This document shows, piece after piece, positions 27,785 through 61,425 of a DNA stretch of 64,000 nucleotides. The position numbers and the translations under genes were made by a program. The first letter of the stretch is position 1. The number at the start of each line of letters is the position of its first letter. This stretch comes from a virus. Taxonomy: Duplodnaviria > Caudoviricetes. The DNA is taken from the IMG/VR virus record IMGVR_UViG_3300029288_000005, positions 29,024-93,023 of that record; one strand, 5' to 3'. The notes under the pieces were generated by a model. The model was not told the DNA's origin, did no database searches, and saw only the letters and a list, made by a program, of their open reading frames with translations.

Positions 27785-29620
27785 GTGCCAATACCCAAGC
27801 CCAATACTGGTGAGAAGAAAGACGATTTTATAGCTCGTTGTATGTCGAACAGTATAATGAACGAAGATTATCCTGACAACAAACAACGAGCAGCAGTTTG
27901 TTATACCCAGTGGAAGGAGAAGTCGGTTAGCATGGACAACAATTGGCTGTTAAGTCAGATCCGAAACCGGAAAGAAAAGCTCACTAGTTTTGGTCGAGGA
28001 ATTACAACAGCAGACGCTTACGTAAAGACCCTTGCTGACGTGGCTGGTTTGGATGTTTGCTATAAGAGGCTCTCAACCAGAACTGTGAGTTTTGATGACA
28101 TACTTCAGAAAGCAGCTAAAACTCTGGTATACTCCAACGACCAGATGGATTTGGAAGCTAAAGCAGATTCTACTTACAAATACAAGGATCTGCTCAAAGG
28201 TCTCAAAGACGTAAAAATACCGAAAAACACCCTCATACTCTTTCGTCACAAGTTGACAACTTCTATAGAGGATCGGGACAAAGACATTCTTCACTCCGAA
28301 GGCATGGAACTCGACCCGAAAATGCTCCTCCTCTGGCAACACGTACACACCATGCCTATCGGTAAGTACGTACACACTGTTTCACAGGACGACAAGAGTG
28401 TGAGGGTTATTTCTGCTATTGTGGATATAAACGAGACATCCCATGATGCGGCTGTGATGATCGACAGTGGAATGGGGCGTTTCAGTCATGGTTTCAAAGC
28501 CACTGAGTTCCAAAAACGAAAGTCTCACAGTGGTAAGGAAACTGGTGGCTTTGAGATCCACCGTGCTGAGATCATGGAGGAGTCGTTGGTTTCCGTTCCT
28601 GCAAACCCGGGTGCTGAAACTGAGGAAATCATTCTCTCACTGGTTGAAGGGGGTAAGTTAACTTCTCCTGTAATGAAGTCAGTGGGTAGATCCATTCGAG
28701 AAAAACGACCTCTGCAGATGCAAGGCATTACCTATAGAGAAACAGTGGGGGATTCCACAAAAGAGCTCACATGCCAGTCTTTTGAGGATTTGAAGAAGCT
28801 GGCCGACCATGGTGTAATTGGTACTAAAAAGGAGAAAGAAGATGAGAACTTGTCAGGAACTGAACAAGATGAGGAAGGAAGAGAAGGCGCCGCATCAGAA
28901 GAAACCAATGACGATGCAGACAAAGCAGCAAATAACAAAACGAAAAACACCAGTGACTCACAAGTAGAGTCAGACAAGAGTGCAAAGATCACAACAAAAA
29001 ACATGCCTGAAGTTTCTAGCAAAGCCTATATTGACTTGCCCAATAGCTATGAAGTAGTAACCTCTTGTTTGTCCAAGTTAATCAATGAGAAGTTTGGTCA
29101 AAGTGCTTGGTTAATTGCTACTTTTACTGGTCGTGCTGTATTTGAAGACTTCAGAGCTGGTCAGAAGAAGTATTACAGTATCGAGTGGGAGAATGTTGAT
29201 GGGAAGATCAAACTCAAGGAAGTGGAGAAAGAAGTTGAGCTAAAAGTTGATGTCGTACAGAAATCAATGAAATTGTTCAATACACTCAACTCGCAAAAAC
29301 AAGGAAGAACACTATCCCGAGCAAATGAAACCAAAATACAGGACGCTAGAGATGATATAAAAGAAGCTTCCAAGATGGAAGGTCTTAGTAGAAGTTGTTT
29401 GGCCTTGTTAAGCAAGGCGTTTAACAGTCTGGGACAGGTGCTCAAGTCACTGGGATCAGAGCCGGAACCCGAAAAGGAAATTACTATCGAGGAAGCAAAG
29501 GTTGTTTTCTTGAAGAATTCAACAGTAGAAGACAGGCAGCAAATGGAAACCCTCCTAAGTGCTATGTCAACTGTGGACAGACGAGCGGAAACCACAAAGT
29601 GGTTCAAGTCTCTAAAATGA
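27785..29620 (+). CDS. Prohead maturation protease (HK97 gp4/S78-like) with N- and C-terminal extensions
   Basis: DRDKDI, LLWQHVHTMPIG (His), FSHGF (Ser), EESLVSVPANP; KQGRTLSRAN C-terminal motif. Confidence 0.9.
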   Translation: MPIPKPNTGEKKDDFIARCMSNSIMNEDYPDNKQRAAVCYTQWKEKSVSMDNNWLLSQIRNRKEKLTSFGRGITTADAYVKTLADVAGLDVCYKRLSTRTVSFDDILQKAAKTLVYSNDQMDLEAKADSTYKYKDLLKGLKDVKIPKNTLILFRHKLTTSIEDRDKDILHSEGMELDPKMLLLWQHVHTMPIGKYVHTVSQDDKSVRVISAIVDINETSHDAAVMIDSGMGRFSHGFKATEFQKRKSHSGKETGGFEIHRAEIMEESLVSVPANPGAETEEIILSLVEGGKLTSPVMKSVGRSIREKRPLQMQGITYRETVGDSTKELTCQSFEDLKKLADHGVIGTKKEKEDENLSGTEQDEEGREGAASEETNDDADKAANNKTKNTSDSQVESDKSAKITTKNMPEVSSKAYIDLPNSYEVVTSCLSKLINEKFGQSAWLIATFTGRAVFEDFRAGQKKYYSIEWENVDGKIKLKEVEKEVELKVDVVQKSMKLFNTLNSQKQGRTLSRANETKIQDARDDIKEASKMEGLSRSCLALLSKAFNSLGQVLKSLGSEPEPEKEITIEEAKVVFLKNSTVEDRQQMETLLSAMSTVDRRAETTKWFKSLK

Positions 29621-55472: not shown

Positions 55473-55826
55473 ATGATCGTCAAAATTGAAAACCATACTA
55501 ATTCTGGCAGACGTTCTGGTTGGACCAAACTGGTCACTGGGTGTGATCTGTCGAAGTCAAATGGGTTTGCTTTCGAAGGAAGATTTCTAAACGATGGCGA
55601 ACAAGAACTACAACCAGGTGATATACTGGTGCAGAAGAATCCAGAAGGAAGTGTGAAGAACCCCTGGAGTTCTGGTGTTTGCTTACGTGTATCAGATACA
55701 GGTGAGTTGATTAGAGTACAAGAAAGCACCTTTGTTTGGGAGAGGGAATTCTTGTCGTTTCGTAACTTAGTGGCTGCTGAATTACAGAAACAGAATCTAC
55801 GACGAAGAAATTGTCGAGGAGTTTAA
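55473..55826 (+). CDS. Hypothetical early protein
   Basis: AAGGAG RBS; SNGFAFEGRFL. Confidence 0.7.
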   Translation: MIVKIENHTNSGRRSGWTKLVTGCDLSKSNGFAFEGRFLNDGEQELQPGDILVQKNPEGSVKNPWSSGVCLRVSDTGELIRVQESTFVWEREFLSFRNLVAAELQKQNLRRRNCRGV

Positions 55827-55890
55827 GCGTAGGGGCTTACGTTAGTTTTACTGTTTTACTGTTCAATTGATTCCAGAAAGGAACTATACA

Positions 55891-56508
55891 ATGAACGCTT
55901 TAGATGTTATTCAGTTACCCATCAGTCGTGCCGATGTTTGTAAGCTACTCAGTAGTAGCTTTGTTCTCACTCCCCGGCAAGTATCCAAGATACGGGCCTC
56001 TATCAGATATGGGAAGTATCATGCAATGTTGGAGGAGTTGCGTGGTTTTCAGTGGAAGGGAGAGCAATTCACACTCAATCGGATGATGGATGAGAGGGAT
56101 ACTTATTTGCAGGAGAATCTGCTACGACAGATAGTCGGCCGTGCTTACTACGAATGGAGGGGGTTGGTGGACCTGGAGAGATCAACCAGCTTCGTTCTAG
56201 AAGGTGAGGTCACAGAGGAGATACTCAGTGTTTGGGATGTTGCCAAGAGGATGGATTGGTTGAAGATGTTTGCCTTGGAGAAGGCCGTTGCTGAGAAGGC
56301 AACAGATTTAAGAATCGCGATTCTTAACTACCAGTCCTACACAGGGAAGACATATTGGCTCCCCGATGAGTGGAAACATTACAACTCTATCGTGGGTAAG
56401 TCCACTGGGGGCACAGCAAAGAAGTCCAAGCACAAGAAAGGCAGTGATGATCTTGTGGGCCACCACAAGCCTTCCAAGCAACAGCTTTTGGAAGCGGCCA
56501 GCAAGTAA
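55891..56508 (+). CDS. Hypothetical early protein
   Basis: AAAGGA RBS. Confidence 0.65.
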   Translation: MNALDVIQLPISRADVCKLLSSSFVLTPRQVSKIRASIRYGKYHAMLEELRGFQWKGEQFTLNRMMDERDTYLQENLLRQIVGRAYYEWRGLVDLERSTSFVLEGEVTEEILSVWDVAKRMDWLKMFALEKAVAEKATDLRIAILNYQSYTGKTYWLPDEWKHYNSIVGKSTGGTAKKSKHKKGSDDLVGHHKPSKQQLLEAASK

Positions 56509-56519
56509 ACACCAAACGT

Positions 56520-56554
56520 TCCAAGCTTCTGGGTATGGTGCTCAGAAGCTTGGA
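56520..56554 (+). terminator. Intergenic stem-loop
   Basis: 16-bp stem tccaagcttctgggta/tgctcagaagcttgga with two G-U pairs. Confidence 0.55.
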
Positions 56555-56576
56555 CATCTTTCAAAGGAGAAATAAA

Positions 56577-56885
56577 ATGCCTTGCTACGAGGAAAGAATC
56601 ATTAGCGTCGAGTTCAAAGCCGGTAACTCGGCAGTGCTACTCAAAGCGATTGATTCCCTTGGCTACAATCATACAGTGCAAGGGAACACAGTCAGTATCA
56701 ACCAGGGAAGCATAGTAATCGACCTTGCCAAGGGCACAGCAGTATTCGCAGATTACTACCAAGCTTCAGTCAACAAACTCAAACAAGCCTACAGCCGTGA
56801 GGCCATCAAAGTAGCGGCAAAGAAGTTCGCCTGGACAACCAAAACCCAAGGCAACAACATCACAGTCAACAAGGTAAAGTGGTAA
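56577..56885 (+). CDS. Ycf35/DUF1257-like protein
   Basis: LLKAIDSLGY, KLKQAYSREAIK..AKK..W; linked to DUF2997- and Ycf46-like genes. Confidence 0.55.
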   Translation: MPCYEERIISVEFKAGNSAVLLKAIDSLGYNHTVQGNTVSINQGSIVIDLAKGTAVFADYYQASVNKLKQAYSREAIKVAAKKFAWTTKTQGNNITVNKVKW

Positions 56886-56886
56886 C

Positions 56887-57102
56887 ATGCCAAAGAACGC
56901 ATTCGATATAAAAATTCTCGAGGATGGAACCCTCAGTATCAACACAGACGACTTCAGCCCAGAAGTCCACAAGCAAGCGGACGACTTTATCAAGTACCTG
57001 GGCGAGATCATGGGTGGCGAAGTGGCTGTAAAAGAAAAGCACAGCCATGCCAAGCACCACCAACACTCGCACGACCACGGTAAAACCTTCCATACACACT
57101 AA
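56887..57102 (+). CDS. DUF2997-like protein with His-rich tail
   Basis: IKILEDGTLSI...LGEIMGG; HSHAKHHQHSHDH. Confidence 0.55.
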   Translation: MPKNAFDIKILEDGTLSINTDDFSPEVHKQADDFIKYLGEIMGGEVAVKEKHSHAKHHQHSHDHGKTFHTH

Positions 57103-57120
57103 ACACTAAGGAGAAATGAA

Positions 57121-57348
57121 ATGAATACATACAGAGTATGGTTTACAGATGGAAATGCCGTTCTTGTTAACGCACTGAGTCAGGATGAAGCTATGGCAGT
57201 TGCTTCAGCAGAAGCTTCCTTCTTAACCGGCAACAAGCGTTTCAAGAAAGTGAGCAAGGTGGAAAACCTTACTACAAGAATCAACAGTCAGAAAAATATA
57301 GTAAACGATCTTCCCAGTATGTTTATACCAGAGGTAAAGGAGAACTAA
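57121..57348 (+). CDS. Hypothetical protein
   Basis: AAGGAG RBS. Confidence 0.6.
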   Translation: MNTYRVWFTDGNAVLVNALSQDEAMAVASAEASFLTGNKRFKKVSKVENLTTRINSQKNIVNDLPSMFIPEVKEN

Positions 57349-57349
57349 A

Positions 57350-57988
57350 ATGGTAAGCTTTAATACCGAGGATGGCAAGAATCCTCAAACACAGACATAT
57401 AAGCAAGCCCAAGAAAAGTACAAGAAGTCTGTACGAAATCTAATAGAAAAAGCAAACAAGTTCAAGGGTAACAAAACGGAGATTCAGGATGCTTTAGAAG
57501 TGGGTTGTTATGTAAGTGCTTCAGTTTTCACCAACCCAGTTATTTCATTAGAAGAAATTGAGAGACTACGAGATTTGTTTGTTATTTGCTATGAAGCTGG
57601 GTTTACCTCAGGAGTGGAATCGAAGTTAAGTGAAGATGAGATTGCCACTGCAAACAACAAAGAAAGAATCCACAAAGAAATAGTCGCAAGCATGCACTCT
57701 ATTGGAAACAAATTATTTGAAATGCTCTCCAGTGGGGAAGTGTGGCATGCTTTGTCTGAGTCACAGATATTGCAGTTGGAATCCATAAACGAGCAACTCA
57801 CAAAAAAGGGAAGGACGTTTCCAATCTGGTACCTTTCTGGAGACCCAGCTGTGGTCCAACTGAGTAACATGGGTGTGTATCCAAAAGGGGATGAATTTGA
57901 TGCTCTTTACTTACCGGACTACCACCCTAAAGCAGCAAGGGTGGCAAAAGGAGGAGGAGCAATAGTACATCCCTGGGAGTGTGTATAG
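57350..57988 (+). CDS. Hypothetical protein
   Basis: AAGGAG RBS. Confidence 0.65.
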   Translation: MVSFNTEDGKNPQTQTYKQAQEKYKKSVRNLIEKANKFKGNKTEIQDALEVGCYVSASVFTNPVISLEEIERLRDLFVICYEAGFTSGVESKLSEDEIATANNKERIHKEIVASMHSIGNKLFEMLSSGEVWHALSESQILQLESINEQLTKKGRTFPIWYLSGDPAVVQLSNMGVYPKGDEFDALYLPDYHPKAARVAKGGGAIVHPWECV

Positions 57989-58018
57989 AAAATACAGCAC
58001 ATTTTATGTGTTTTGATA

Positions 58019-58048
58019 TTGACAGGTTATGGAGTAATACTATATAAT
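58019..58048 (+). promoter_or_regulatory. sigma70 consensus promoter
   Basis: TTGACA-18 bp-TATAAT upstream of the AAA ATPase. Confidence 0.7.
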
Positions 58049-58093
58049 TGATGTTATCGGGGAAACATCTACAAACCAAACGGAGAACAAGTA

Positions 58094-59599
58094 ATGAAAC
58101 TTATCGAGAGACTTAAACACGTGCGTCGGGCAGCGGTGCCTCTAGTTTCTATTGGTACACCAGATGCGGCGGCCACTATTCGATCTGTTGTAAGTGACAT
58201 TAACAGTTGCCCCATTGTGGTTTGGGACGTACAGAGAGGTGCTCGTCCGGCAAACGAGAAAGGGCAAGAAGCCCTCTCCCAAATTAACTCAGACGATACA
58301 ATTGGTAATCCTCTTGGTCTTCTGGACGAAGCACCTAAACTGCCTGAGAAGACTATTCTCTTTGTAATGAACGCTAACAAAGTGGCTGAAGCGGCAGGTC
58401 TGCCCTGGATTCAGGGTGTCTGGAACCTCCGAGATGAATACAAAACAGATGGTAGAACTCTCATTCTCTTGGCGAGGAATTCGACTGTGCCTCCCGAGTT
58501 GGAAGGCGACATCGTCTGCCTCGAGGAAGAACTTCCCAGTAATGAGGAACTTTTCGATATCGTACAGTCACTGGATACAGATGCTACTCTATCTGCAGGG
58601 GAGGACAAACGAAAACCCACCCCCAACTCAACAATTCAAAAAGCAGTAGACGCAGTTTCCGGACTCTCTGCTTTTGCTGCGGAGCAAGCAGTGTCCATGG
58701 CCATCAGAGCAAAGGGAATCGACCTCGATCTTCTCTGGGACATCAAACGCTCGATGATCGAAGAAACGCCTGGTTTGAGCTGCTGGCGGGGAGGTGAGTC
58801 ATTCGATGATATCGGGGGACTCAGCAACGTCAAAAACTACTGTCAATCACTTATCAACGGTCGCAAAAAGTATGGGGCGGTCGTCTTCATCGACGAAATC
58901 GAGAAGCTGCTAGCTGGGGCAACAGAAGGAACTGGAGATAGCTCTGGTGTTAGTCAAGGGTTTCTCCAAGTTCTACTCACATACATGCAAGACCATAACG
59001 TCTCTGGAATGATCTTCATTGGACATCCAGGAGCCGGTAAATCAATGGTCGCAAAGAGTATCGGAGCTGAGGTTGGAATCCCCACCATTGCTCTGGACGT
59101 TAACGCAATGAAGAGTTCCCTAGTGGGTTCGTCCGAGCAGCGCATCCGTGAGGCGATGAAAGTCGTTACAGCAGTCAGCAACGACAAACCGCTATTCGTT
59201 GCCACCTGTAACAAAATAGCCAACCTGCCCCCTGAGTTGCGACGACGTTTCACAGCGGGCACATTCTTTTTTGATCTGCCCGACGGCGAGGAACGAGAAG
59301 TAATCTGGAACTATTACCTCTCAAAACTGCTTCCCGATACAAACGATAAACTTCCCGACCATCGTGGTTGGACAGGGGCTGAGATACGAGCCTGCTGCCA
59401 AGGCGCTTGGGAACGGGGAGTCAGCCTCAAAGAAGCAGCTAAGTTCATCGTACCTGTAGCAAAAGCGGATCCTACTCGAATCGAGAAACTGCAAAGGGAA
59501 GCCTCGGGACGCTACATATCAGCATCCAGCGAGGGCATGTACAAACTCCCGGTCGAAACCGGCAAAACAAAGCGGGCCGTCAGCAGCAACCTCAACTAA
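58094..59599 (+). CDS. Ycf46-like AAA+ ATPase with rearranged motif order
   Basis: FDDIGGL, VFIDEIEK, GHPGAGKS, SLVGSSE, VATCN, LPPEL, WTGAEI. Confidence 0.88.
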   Translation: MKLIERLKHVRRAAVPLVSIGTPDAAATIRSVVSDINSCPIVVWDVQRGARPANEKGQEALSQINSDDTIGNPLGLLDEAPKLPEKTILFVMNANKVAEAAGLPWIQGVWNLRDEYKTDGRTLILLARNSTVPPELEGDIVCLEEELPSNEELFDIVQSLDTDATLSAGEDKRKPTPNSTIQKAVDAVSGLSAFAAEQAVSMAIRAKGIDLDLLWDIKRSMIEETPGLSCWRGGESFDDIGGLSNVKNYCQSLINGRKKYGAVVFIDEIEKLLAGATEGTGDSSGVSQGFLQVLLTYMQDHNVSGMIFIGHPGAGKSMVAKSIGAEVGIPTIALDVNAMKSSLVGSSEQRIREAMKVVTAVSNDKPLFVATCNKIANLPPELRRRFTAGTFFFDLPDGEEREVIWNYYLSKLLPDTNDKLPDHRGWTGAEIRACCQGAWERGVSLKEAAKFIVPVAKADPTRIEKLQREASGRYISASSEGMYKLPVETGKTKRAVSSNLN

Positions 59600-59639
59600 A
59601 TTTACACAACTTTTAACAACGTTAACAAGGAGAATCGAA

Positions 59640-60482
59640 ATGAGTAAGTTATTTGAAAAGACAGTTTGTCTGAGCGTCACCTTCCACATGGCTGGAGACT
59701 CTCGTATCGGGGACATCAATGAGATTGAGACGGACGCAAATCGTGGCCGGCTGAACCTTAGTAAGAAGATCTTCCGATCAGAGAACTACAAGGCCATGCA
59801 ACAGATCCAATGGAAAACCAAGGAATGGGTCCAAAAGAGAGCCCTGCCTTCGCCCCTGCGTCATGGTACGTTCTTGCTACCGAAGTCCATGATCGATGAG
59901 GTGATTTTGAAGCTGGACCAGCAAACTGAAGCGTATAACAAACTGGCTGATGCTTTCGTCGCTGAGTATCCTACTCTCATAAGTGAGTCGAAGAAACAAC
60001 TCAAGTCTCAGTTCAATGAAGCCAACTACCCAACTGCAAAAGAGATGCGGTCCCGTTTCTGGGTTTCCCGTATGTTTGTTAAGTTTGGAAACGTCTCTGG
60101 TGTTGACCAATCAAAAGAGATTCAAAGCGCCATCGATGACATCCAGTCAACTTTGAGAATGGGCATGCTTGAATTGGTTGACAAACTTCAAATCATGCTT
60201 GGGGAACGCAAAGATGGTCGAAAGGCTGCTGTTCGCAAGGATACGCTCGATGCGTTCAACGAGTGGTTGGAAATGCTGCCCAAAAAGAACATCCTCGAGG
60301 ATACTGAACTCGAGGAGTTGGCTAACAAAGCACGTCTGCTGCTTAAGGGAAACAAACAGAGCGACCTGCGGGATATTGACTCTGTCAGGTCCAAAGTCAA
60401 GAAGGAAATGAGTGTAATCAGCGACAAACTCAAATCGATGATCGTTGCCTGCCCCCGTCGCTCCTTCGATTTTGAGGAGTAG
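59640..60482 (+). CDS. DUF3150-like protein
   Basis: LSKKIF, GTFLLP, FVAEYP, QFNEANYP, RFW pattern. Confidence 0.55.
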   Translation: MSKLFEKTVCLSVTFHMAGDSRIGDINEIETDANRGRLNLSKKIFRSENYKAMQQIQWKTKEWVQKRALPSPLRHGTFLLPKSMIDEVILKLDQQTEAYNKLADAFVAEYPTLISESKKQLKSQFNEANYPTAKEMRSRFWVSRMFVKFGNVSGVDQSKEIQSAIDDIQSTLRMGMLELVDKLQIMLGERKDGRKAAVRKDTLDAFNEWLEMLPKKNILEDTELEELANKARLLLKGNKQSDLRDIDSVRSKVKKEMSVISDKLKSMIVACPRRSFDFEE

Positions 60483-60670
60483 ATTATAACAATGGAACGG
60501 GAGTGTGTCCTATCCCTTTTACTTTTTCACAGGAGTTAAAAAGATGTACGACGATTTGTTTGAACCGAAGAAGTTTCTAGCAATGACAATCGCCACTAGT
60601 GTACTGGCTTTTGTGGTGTTTGTATTGCCCAATCTCATTGAGAAGTTAATTGCCTTGCTTTGATAATACC

Positions 60671-60699
60671 TTGACCAAATCAAAGCAAGACATTATAAT
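60671..60699 (+). promoter_or_regulatory. sigma70 promoter
   Basis: TTGACC-17 bp-TATAAT. Confidence 0.65.
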
Positions 60700-60726
60700 G
60701 TCTCAATTCTAGGAAAGGAATTCCAT

Positions 60727-60909
60727 ATGAAATCTCTATTCTCTGCATCAGTGGTGGTCTACAAAACGGGCAAAACCACTGATGCAGATTCTACCGTCAA
60801 AATGAGGGTCATGGCTCATTCTGAGTCACAAGCCAGGAGGATTCTTATCAACAGAATTCTAGAGAAGGGATCCCTCGTTCGAAGATTCAAGTACTTATTA
60901 AAGAGTTAG
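60727..60909 (+). CDS. Hypothetical protein
   Basis: AAAGGA RBS after promoter. Confidence 0.55.
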   Translation: MKSLFSASVVVYKTGKTTDADSTVKMRVMAHSESQARRILINRILEKGSLVRRFKYLLKS

Positions 60910-60918
60910 GAGAACAAA

Positions 60919-61425
60919 ATGTGTACAGCTGTTGCTAAAGAAGATACCTACAGAGAAGTAGAGCGAATGCTCTACAAGATGTCATGGTCGTTTTGCAAAC
61001 GATATGGAGGGGAGTGGGAAGATTACATGGGTGCTGCTAATGAGGGGTTTGTGGATGCCTATGAAACGTACAACCCTAAGGAGATAGCTTCCTTTAGTAC
61101 ATGGGTGTATTGGTCTGCATTGGGCCGTCTCACAAGACTTGTGAGTGCAAAGATTTGTAGTAACAAATACACAACAGCTATTGATTTATCCATCTTTGAA
61201 TCGAAACCTCAATTTGAACTTGACCGTTTTCTGTTTGAGGTTTCGAAAGACGCAAAACAATTACTTAGTATCTTGTGGGATCTCAATGTAATTGAAGAAA
61301 CACTCAGTACAGAGATGATTGATTGCATCAAAAGTGGTTTGGTGTGCAAACTGAAAGAGTCTGGTTGGACTGTTGCACGAATAGTTGATACATTCTCTGA
61401 AATCAAAGAGGTATTACAATGCTGA
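60919..61425 (+). CDS. Sigma70 region-2-like protein (phage sigma-like factor)
   Basis: EDYMGAANEGFVDAYETYNP...SFSTWVYW matches sigma region 2. Confidence 0.75.
   Translation: MCTAVAKEDTYREVERMLYKMSWSFCKRYGGEWEDYMGAANEGFVDAYETYNPKEIASFSTWVYWSALGRLTRLVSAKICSNKYTTAIDLSIFESKPQFELDRFLFEVSKDAKQLLSILWDLNVIEETLSTEMIDCIKSGLVCKLKESGWTVARIVDTFSEIKEVLQC

Follow-up and report, generated by a model that had tools for sequence, protein, structure and literature searches.

The 64,000-nucleotide stretch of DNA analysed here, hereafter called the window, covers positions 29,024 to 93,023 of the virus record IMGVR_UViG_3300029288_000005 and belongs to a complete tailed-phage genome of 93,023 bp with direct terminal repeats. 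At positions 58094–59599 of the window (+ strand, as are all motifs and blocks described below) lies the gene of a 501-residue protein (P0001), assigned as an AAA ATPase from a PF00004 match, its homologues and an AlphaFold2 model. No second copy of the gene was found in the phage genome. P0001 is a two-domain classical AAA protein, in which a degenerate first domain (D1) is followed by an active-type second domain (D2). D1 (residues 1–230, positions 58094–58783) is AAA-like with its elements in the normal order and is devoid of the Walker A lysine and the Walker B acids; the sequence GTPDAAAT is present at the place of the P-loop and LFVMNAN at that of Walker B. In D2 the Walker B motif stands before the Walker A motif, and this internal rearrangement is the subject of the present report.

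Motif order and block exchange in D2

D2 opens with FDDIGGL (residues 237–243, positions 58802–58822), followed by the Walker B motif VVFIDEIEK (residues 263–271, 58880–58906), the DSSGVS sequence of pore loop 2 (residues 282–287, 58937–58954) and LLTYMQD (residues 294–300, 58973–58993). The Walker A motif GMIFIGHPGAGKS comes next (residues 305–317, 59006–59044), together with LVGSSE of pore loop 1 (residues 343–348, 59120–59137) and AMKVVTAV (residues 354–361, 59153–59176). Sensor 1, LFVATCN (residues 367–373, 59192–59212), and LPPELRRRF (residues 378–386, 59225–59251) complete the series. The P-loop core GHPGAGKS (residues 310–317) fits the consensus GxxGxGK[ST], and VVFIDE (residues 263–268) fits hhhhDE. 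A second Walker B after Walker A is absent from D2; helix α2 leads straight to the sensor-1 strand.

Two adjacent units can thus be delimited. Block X (residues 261–302, 42 residues, positions 58874–58999) contains β3 with Walker B (D267, E268), pore loop 2 and α3, which ends in MQD. Block Y (residues 303–364, 62 residues, positions 59000–59185) contains β1 with Walker A (K316), α1, β2, pore loop 1 (L343-V344-G345) and α2. Strand β4 with sensor 1 (N373) and α4 with the arginine fingers (R384, R385) are at their normal position (59186–59251), as is the helical lid with its WTGAEI motif (residues 397–470, positions 59282–59503; helices 398–412, 428–441 and 460–470 in the model). The linear order of D2 is therefore α0, X, Y, β4. 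Ordinary relatives have α0, Y, X, β4, and in PF00004, too, Walker A precedes Walker B. The PF00004 profile scored 60.4 bits (gathering threshold 21.2), but the match was broken into two partial stretches, the best of which covers profile positions 1–53 only. No model with a named function spanning the swapped arrangement was found in NCBIfam, PADLOC or PHROGs. IetA (PADLOC) and IteA, CdvC and others (NCBIfam) gave weak partial matches restricted to the P-loop half and were discarded.

The relation of the two blocks to normal-order proteins was assessed by three comparisons. A phmmer search against PDB sequences matched two parts of VAT, a VCP-like ATPase of archaea, in reversed order: residues 304–358 of the query correspond to VAT 321–375, and residues 261–311 to VAT 380–429. 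BLASTP against the normal-order protein gp60 of Rhodobacter phage RcTiptonus gave two reciprocal gaps of about 43 residues each, with query residues 261–303 unmatched and the Walker B block of RcTiptonus unmatched after query residue 362, which is the signature of a moved block. Finally, the pieces of the protein were joined in silico as N+Y+X+C (X, 261–302; Y, 303–364) and aligned globally with six normal-order relatives. The re-ordering raised the scores by 106–164 BLOSUM62 units. Five of the six relatives then had no more than 4 gap columns at the junctions, and Javan368 had 9 at the N|Y junction. The identity to three Planctomycetota normal-order relatives was 42–48% for Y, 40–55% for X and 48% for the C-terminal part. 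Because the scores of the re-ordered alignments rise, the junction gaps are few and the block identities high, two β-α units have, at the level of sequence, cleanly changed places, the breaks falling in the loops that lead into β3, β1 and β4. Seen within the internal X-Y segment, the swap amounts to a circular permutation, and its breakpoints lie outside the motifs.

These results agree with a preliminary description of this DNA, which had placed Walker B before Walker A with the same coordinates, as borne out by the translated reading frame. It had proposed that two neighbouring blocks inside the domain have traded places between unmoved flanks, and had predicted that database searches would return out-of-order matches; the VAT matches, the RcTiptonus gaps and the block profiles described below fit the former, and phmmer delivered the latter. 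Its statement that all motifs are intact and the frame open holds for the gene in the window and across the family, and from this conservation the protein is predicted to be functional, as had been suggested there.

Contigs of four sequencing runs in Logan were compared over window positions 58600–59500. A groundwater contig from another study matched positions 58600–59467 with zero differences, and a landfill contig from a third study covered 58600–59220. No joints, indels or same-organism loose ends were found at the three junctions in the Logan contigs. The check for misassembly proposed in the preliminary description thus turned out in favour of the order as assembled, the contigs of the two other studies bridging all three junctions.

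The same order was found in a large family. A search of a protein collection returned at least 1882 homologues of the 501-residue ATPase; the best 120 were all collinear with it and had the swapped order, at 45–81% identity and a query coverage of 71–100% (mostly 96–100%, the lowest values being fragments). A profile search of 1.84 billion cluster representatives gave 18710 matches (3350 at E ≤ 1e-30), normal-order relatives included, and the best 150 were single collinear matches save for five long proteins split by inteins. When 388 proteins were typed with hidden Markov models (HMMs) of the separate blocks, 266 had X before Y, the counterparts with the same order that the preliminary description had suggested looking for, and 121 had Y before X; the single case read as XYY has a block Y interrupted by an intein. 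Family members are named 'adenylate kinase family enzyme', 'nucleoside-triphosphatase THEP1' or 'hypothetical protein' in public sources, and profile annotation apparently sees only the P-loop half of these proteins. Most of the 616 plasmid matches (Klebsiella, Escherichia and others) were set aside, as they cover residues 290–435 only and represent a generic AAA-domain match outside this family.

Fold and catalytic site of the permuted domain

The AlphaFold2 model, computed from an alignment of 113 sequences, had a mean predicted local distance difference test (pLDDT) score of 94.5 and a predicted template modelling (pTM) score of 0.88. Its D2 consists of strand 262–266, helix 286–300, strand 304–310, helix 316–327, strand 331–334, helix 344–361, strand 366–372, helix 380–385, strand 390–393 and the lid. 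Residues 226–474 superposed on p97 D2 (3cf0_A) with a Z-score of 16.5 and a root mean square deviation (rmsd) of 2.5 Å over 203 of about 255 residues, at 24% identity. The shortfall in aligned residues is what is expected of a sequential aligner if only a 42-residue unit is out of order. The whole model matched the D1-D2 tandem of p97/Cdc48 with Z-scores of 18–19 over about 395 residues (rmsd 4.7 Å). The structure prediction that the preliminary description had called for thus yielded a confident AAA-like D2. The possibility raised there that the Walker B block belongs to D1 did not hold, D1 being a complete AAA-like domain that aligns to p97 D1.

Residue coevolution was determined by mean-field direct-coupling analysis (DCA; zero-sum gauge) of 322 swapped sequences with an effective number (Neff) of 262, and the best coupling between each two strands was ranked among 30876 pairs. 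Canonical neighbours ranked high: the Walker A strand with β5 at 21, the Walker B strand (residues 261–267) with the sensor-1 strand (residues 365–372) at 35, and the Walker A strand with the sensor-1 strand at 47. Among pairs that are not neighbours, Walker B with Walker A ranked 918, β2 with sensor 1 1364, sensor 1 with β5 743 and Walker B with β5 235. That the Walker B strand covaries with the sensor-1 strand, an element of D2, likewise speaks against a place of the former in D1. Helix α3 was coupled with α2 and α4, and α0 with α1, as in ordinary AAA domains. The strongest coupling overall, A262–S362, connects the start of the Walker B strand with the end of α2; it is the ancestral covalent junction of α2 and β3, now retained as a contact.

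The DCA data support the order β5-β1-β4-β3(-β2), with the position of a strand set by the motif that follows it. Taken together, model and coevolution indicate that the predicted sheet order β5-1-4-3-2 stays normal and that re-routing is limited to three loops on the bottom side of the sheet. Because the breakpoint strands β3, β1 and β4 neighbour each other in such a sheet, the re-routed loops would need to reach only one or two strands sideways. The strands would keep the place set by the following motif, and the nucleotide site would be assembled as usual. Since every crossover keeps its direction, the helices are expected on the usual face of the sheet.

Conservation was computed over the same 322 sequences of the swapped family. 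In Walker A, K316 and G313 were present in 322 of 322; in Walker B, E268 was conserved to 100% and D267 to 99.4%. Sensor 1 N373 was invariant (100%), and the arginine fingers R385 and R384 reached 99.7% and 96%. In pore loop 1, a hydrophobic-x-Gly motif between β2 and α2, G345 was conserved to 99.4% and position 343 was L, I, F or H; D282 of pore loop 2 was conserved to 97.5%. Some members of the family carry inteins (Intein_splicing with LAGLIDADG or HNH), located in the P-loop or the sensor-1 strand. They split P0193 and P0221 in the Walker A P-loop (near profile position 308–311) and P0123, P0227 and P0196 at the sensor-1 strand (near 366). Essential, conserved ATPase motifs such as the P-loop and sensor 1 are places where inteins typically reside. 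An intein was also seen in P0273, a normal-order relative of HJ05 gp65.

Relatives, origin and gene module

A scan of 185,579 species genomes gave at least 508 related loci, the best 80 of which were typed for order. Fifty-three were swapped (36–73% identity) and 24 had the normal order (28–31% identity), the latter all from Planctomycetota. The swapped loci were found in Acidobacteriota, Nitrospirota, Myxococcota, Chthonomonadales, Dormiibacterota, Dehalococcoidia and one Planctomycetaceae metagenome-assembled genome. That last copy (L138, CALALR010000004.1) is the only swapped one from Planctomycetota, the phylum of the nearest normal-order clade, among these best 80 loci; at 36% identity it has diverged further than any other swapped copy seen, carries TAN in place of TCN as its sensor 1, differs in the context of the P-loop, and nests in the swapped clade on a long branch. 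The chromosome of the cultured nitrite oxidiser Nitrospira moscoviensis NSP M-1 (NZ_CP011801.1, 1452457–1461911; L113) holds a swapped copy with 43% identity, which is followed on the same strand by a Met-Pro-Cys DUF1257-like, a His-tail DUF2997-like and a DUF3150-like gene and presumably sits in an integrated element.

The swapped order also occurs in a cultured phage: gp103 of Tunturiibacter phage Tunturi_3 (XOB77284.1, PP885686) has Walker B first and 35% identity over 97% of the query. It differs from the window in that its DUF1257-, DUF2997- and DUF3150-like genes lie downstream and are of the ordinary MSH/Cys type; its annotation is 'ATPase', with no remark on the order. Normal-order copies were present in Rhodobacter phage RcTiptonus (gp60), Aeromonas phage HJ05 (gp65), Rhizobium phage L338C and Agrobacterium phage JP1, in the Streptococcus satellite Javan368 and on the Candidatus Manganitrophus plasmid CP114562 (WDT82709.1, 28.6% identity). 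With tblastn, 84–95% of the query was covered by HJ05 and Javan368.

Two maximum-likelihood trees were calculated from block-re-ordered alignments with 31 and 36 swapped rows. In both, all swapped rows were on one side of a branch with a Shimodaira-Hasegawa-like approximate likelihood ratio test (SH-aLRT) value of 100. In the second, the Planctomycetota normal-order clade grouped with the swapped clade at 99, apart from the other normal-order clades. The normal order, Walker A first, is ancestral in AAA+ proteins. With this order taken as ancestral, one change probably explains the tree data. The permuted form probably originated once, in an ancestor that would have been near the normal-order clade now in Planctomycetota genomes. 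In the route proposed, the Y-X segment was duplicated in tandem (Y-X-Y-X) and the outer copies, the first Y and the last X, were then lost, as in the textbook route of permutation.

The ATPase gene in the window is accompanied by genes of two partner families and by a candidate member of a third (DUF1257), all on the + strand. Directly downstream lies a gene (59640–60482) of a 280-residue DUF3150-family protein (PF11348, 29.2 bits with a cut-off of 24.9). Upstream, a gene at 56577–56885 encodes a DUF1257-like protein of 102 residues, called the 'MPC' type after the Met-Pro-Cys that is invariant at its N terminus; it belongs to a cluster of 19 loci. An hhalign comparison with DUF1257 gave a probability of 90% (E 1.7e-6), the match being confined to the C-terminal 30 columns, and Pfam itself returned nothing for this protein; the gene lies directly upstream of the DUF2997-like gene, the position of DUF1257 elsewhere. 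The latter gene (56887–57102) encodes a 71-residue protein with a His-rich tail and without the Cys pair, which matched DUF2997 over 46 columns (hhalign, 92.7%, E 4.4e-7) and likewise had no direct Pfam match. Between these small partners and the ATPase, two lineage-specific reading frames of 75 and 212 residues (57121–57988, +) lie outside the conserved module; the longer clusters with one other locus and the shorter with none, and neither has a Pfam or PHROG match.

The frequency of the partners was counted with HMMs of our own at 136 swapped and 29 normal-order loci. A DUF3150-like gene was near the ATPase in 126 swapped and 19 normal-order loci, a DUF2997-like gene in 119 and 26, and a DUF1257-like gene in 86 and 25. 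Because these genes recur beside both forms, the rewired ATPase is, as far as gene neighbourhood can tell, part of the same module as its normal-order relatives. The Met-Pro-Cys and His-tail variants of the partners were found at 45 of the 136 swapped loci versus none of the 29 normal ones, the normal sample being small. The Met-Pro-Cys type differs from the ordinary DUF1257 start, Met-Ser-His, and the His-tail protein has an invariant His; the conserved termini and the His/Cys pattern suggest that the small partners may share a metal site. The model of the DUF3150 protein had a pLDDT of 92.5. Foldseek found no PDB match for it at E ≤ 0.001, VIA-align returned generic helical bundles only (Z ≤ 9.6), and its matches in the ESM Atlas were other DUF3150 or unnamed viral clusters. 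A function for DUF1257, DUF2997 or DUF3150 was not found in the literature covered, from which subscription journals are mostly absent.

A pattern match to a σ70-type promoter, TTGACA-18-TATAAT (58019–58048, +), lies 45 nt upstream of the start of the ATPase gene and is the only 12/12 consensus match in the 5.2 kb from 55800 to 61000; a GGAG ribosome-binding site (58083–58086, +) is present between it and the start codon. A second promoter-like site (11/12, 60671–60699) was seen after the DUF3150 gene. Two genes downstream of the module, a 168-residue protein (60919–61425) matched Sigma70_r2 with 29.2 bits (threshold 24) and has a relative in 8 viral loci. In 14 module-bearing viral loci, a family of 85–110 residues with the signature 'RRASHVEP ... 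W.ADL.P..GP' is found just after the DUF2997 gene; the loci named are L018, L031, L041, L048, L052, L065, L070, L073, L075, L077, L078 and L083, and the family is absent from the window.

Interpretation and significance

The observations are very probably explained by a natural permutation inside the active D2 of a Ycf46-like phage AAA ATPase, shared by the whole family. The genome was obtained by metagenome assembly and the best-matching run may be its own source, which would leave room for a chimeric contig, a local misjoin or another sequencing artefact. Against this, the junctions are crossed in the same way, with no joint or indel, by contigs of two other studies, and the order recurs in hundreds of homologues (36–81% identity) found in viral contigs and bacterial genomes as well as in a cultured phage, so that we regard an artefact as practically negligible. 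That the arrangement is a decaying or neutral relic without function might be proposed from the unassigned function and from the fact that RNA runs holding the gene are not listed. It is hard to reconcile with an open frame and near-invariant catalytic residues in hundreds of diverged copies, and with conserved partner genes, homing inteins maintained in the gene, a perfect promoter-like site and a ribosome-binding site; a relic is thus highly improbable.

The permutation might also be apparent if the Walker B-like block, as a leftover of D1 or an insert in the linker, lay outside the catalytic site of D2, which would then bind ATP without hydrolysis and act as a switch or pseudo-enzyme. PF00004 does match parts of D2 only, and hydrolysis by D2 is a prediction. 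However, D1 is complete without block X and aligns to p97 D1, block X comes after FDDIGGL and α0, with which D2 starts, and its residues D267 and E268 are 99–100% conserved. Moreover, its strand covaries with the sensor-1 strand and its helix with α2 and α4 of D2, and its identity to the genuine Walker B block in normal-order relatives from Planctomycetota is 40–55%, which makes a non-catalytic block very unlikely. Somewhat less remote, and still unlikely, is a sheet of different order in which each strand is placed by the element that precedes it, with the active site in a new geometry. The junction strands each resemble two ancestral strands by their context, which would be compatible with such a sheet. 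The couplings it predicts are weak (ranks 918, 1364 and 235 for Walker B with Walker A, β2 with sensor 1 and Walker B with β5, versus 21–47 for the canonical pairs), and D2 can be superposed on p97 D2 over about 200 residues with an rmsd of 2.5–2.7 Å.

Several points weigh against the natural permutation of an active D2 or narrow what may be concluded from it. The coupling of the Walker B strand (β3) with β2 is weak (DCA rank 283). AlphaFold2 and DCA draw on the same alignment signal and hence are not independent, and the strand ladder was derived from DCA and the aligned length rather than from the coordinates of the model. ATPase activity, ring formation and sheet order are predictions for every member of the family, and the RNA runs listed include none that hold the ATPase gene. 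The trees are unrooted and come from quick searches with uneven sampling of normal-order relatives, and the direction of change rests on the normal order in other AAA+ proteins. Neither XYX nor YXY intermediates were found among the 388 typed proteins, and the route of origin by duplication is therefore a conjecture.

With these qualifications, the feature is real and conserved: judged from the sequences, the family has an AAA+ domain with permuted connectivity, for which conservation argues in favour of activity. The closest known proteins are the normal-order Ycf46-like ATPases of the same module, and the best BFVD matches are indeed named 'AAA domain-containing protein ycf46'. These proteins (for example Planctomycetota loci L142–L166, WDT82709.1, HJ05 gp65 (WEV89366.1), RcTiptonus gp60 (QXN72530.1) and JP1 (XLQ31056.1)) have the same degenerate D1 and active D2, the same partner genes and similar motifs (FIDEIEK..AG, DSSG, MQD/MQE, LVGxSE, T(C/A)N, LPPEL), with an identity of 28–31% for the Planctomycetota and Manganitrophus copies and 22–24% for those of phages. 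They differ in having Walker A before Walker B, whereas in the window family the 42-residue unit precedes the 62-residue unit.

The type II AAA unfoldases p97/VCP, Cdc48, Rix7/NVL and Drg1 are the best structural matches of the whole model as D1-D2 tandems and share with the window protein the pore loops, sensor 1 and arginine fingers. They differ in their normal order, in an active or nucleotide-binding D1 and in N-terminal adaptor-binding domains that are absent from the window protein; the resemblance is one of working principle and does not imply orthology. An unfoldase-like ring is proposed as the most likely form because the protein is closest to these enzymes and has kept both pore loops. 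In such a ring the D2 tier would hydrolyse ATP, carry an inactive, structural D1 tier, and thread or remodel a protein substrate via pore loops 1 and 2 together with the DUF1257-, DUF2997- and DUF3150-like partners.

Circularly permuted P-loop GTPases (cpGTPases), such as YlqF/RbgA and RsgA/YjeQ, are a known precedent of re-ordered motifs in enzymes that are still active. They belong to the TRAFAC class; in them the entire domain is circularly permuted and has acquired new termini, and the motif order is G4-G5-G1-G2-G3. The window ATPase is unlike them in that an internal block was swapped and the termini are fixed, so the cpGTPases serve as an analogy only; no GTPase family was found in Pfam and NCBIfam scans of the ATPase, all matches being AAA-type. 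No description of an AAA+ domain in which Walker B precedes Walker A was found in the literature, the coverage of which was incomplete, leaving a prior description possible. We lean towards the view that this is the first natural AAA+ core, or core of an ASCE (additional strand, catalytic glutamate) P-loop protein, with a permuted internal chain order in what is still an active ring motor.

The order of Walker A, Walker B and sensor 1 is treated as fixed in AAA+ and related P-loop ATPases, and motif-based annotation depends on it; standard profiles see only fragments of the swapped proteins. A large, conserved and apparently working family would imply that the AAA core tolerates the re-routing of three loops. 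The module of four genes occurs widely in phages and prophages, and cultured systems are at hand in Tunturi_3 and the chromosomal copy of Nitrospira moscoviensis. By its position the MQD sequence matches the inter-subunit signalling motif. If the permutation is as described here, this sequence, together with pore loop 2 and α3, would have its covalent link to the P-loop strand and not to the sensor-1 strand. Because of this connection, the coupling of the nucleotide state to substrate pulling might be altered and not merely preserved. The family may thus offer a natural test case in which chain topology can be set against folding pathway and allosteric coupling in ring motors.

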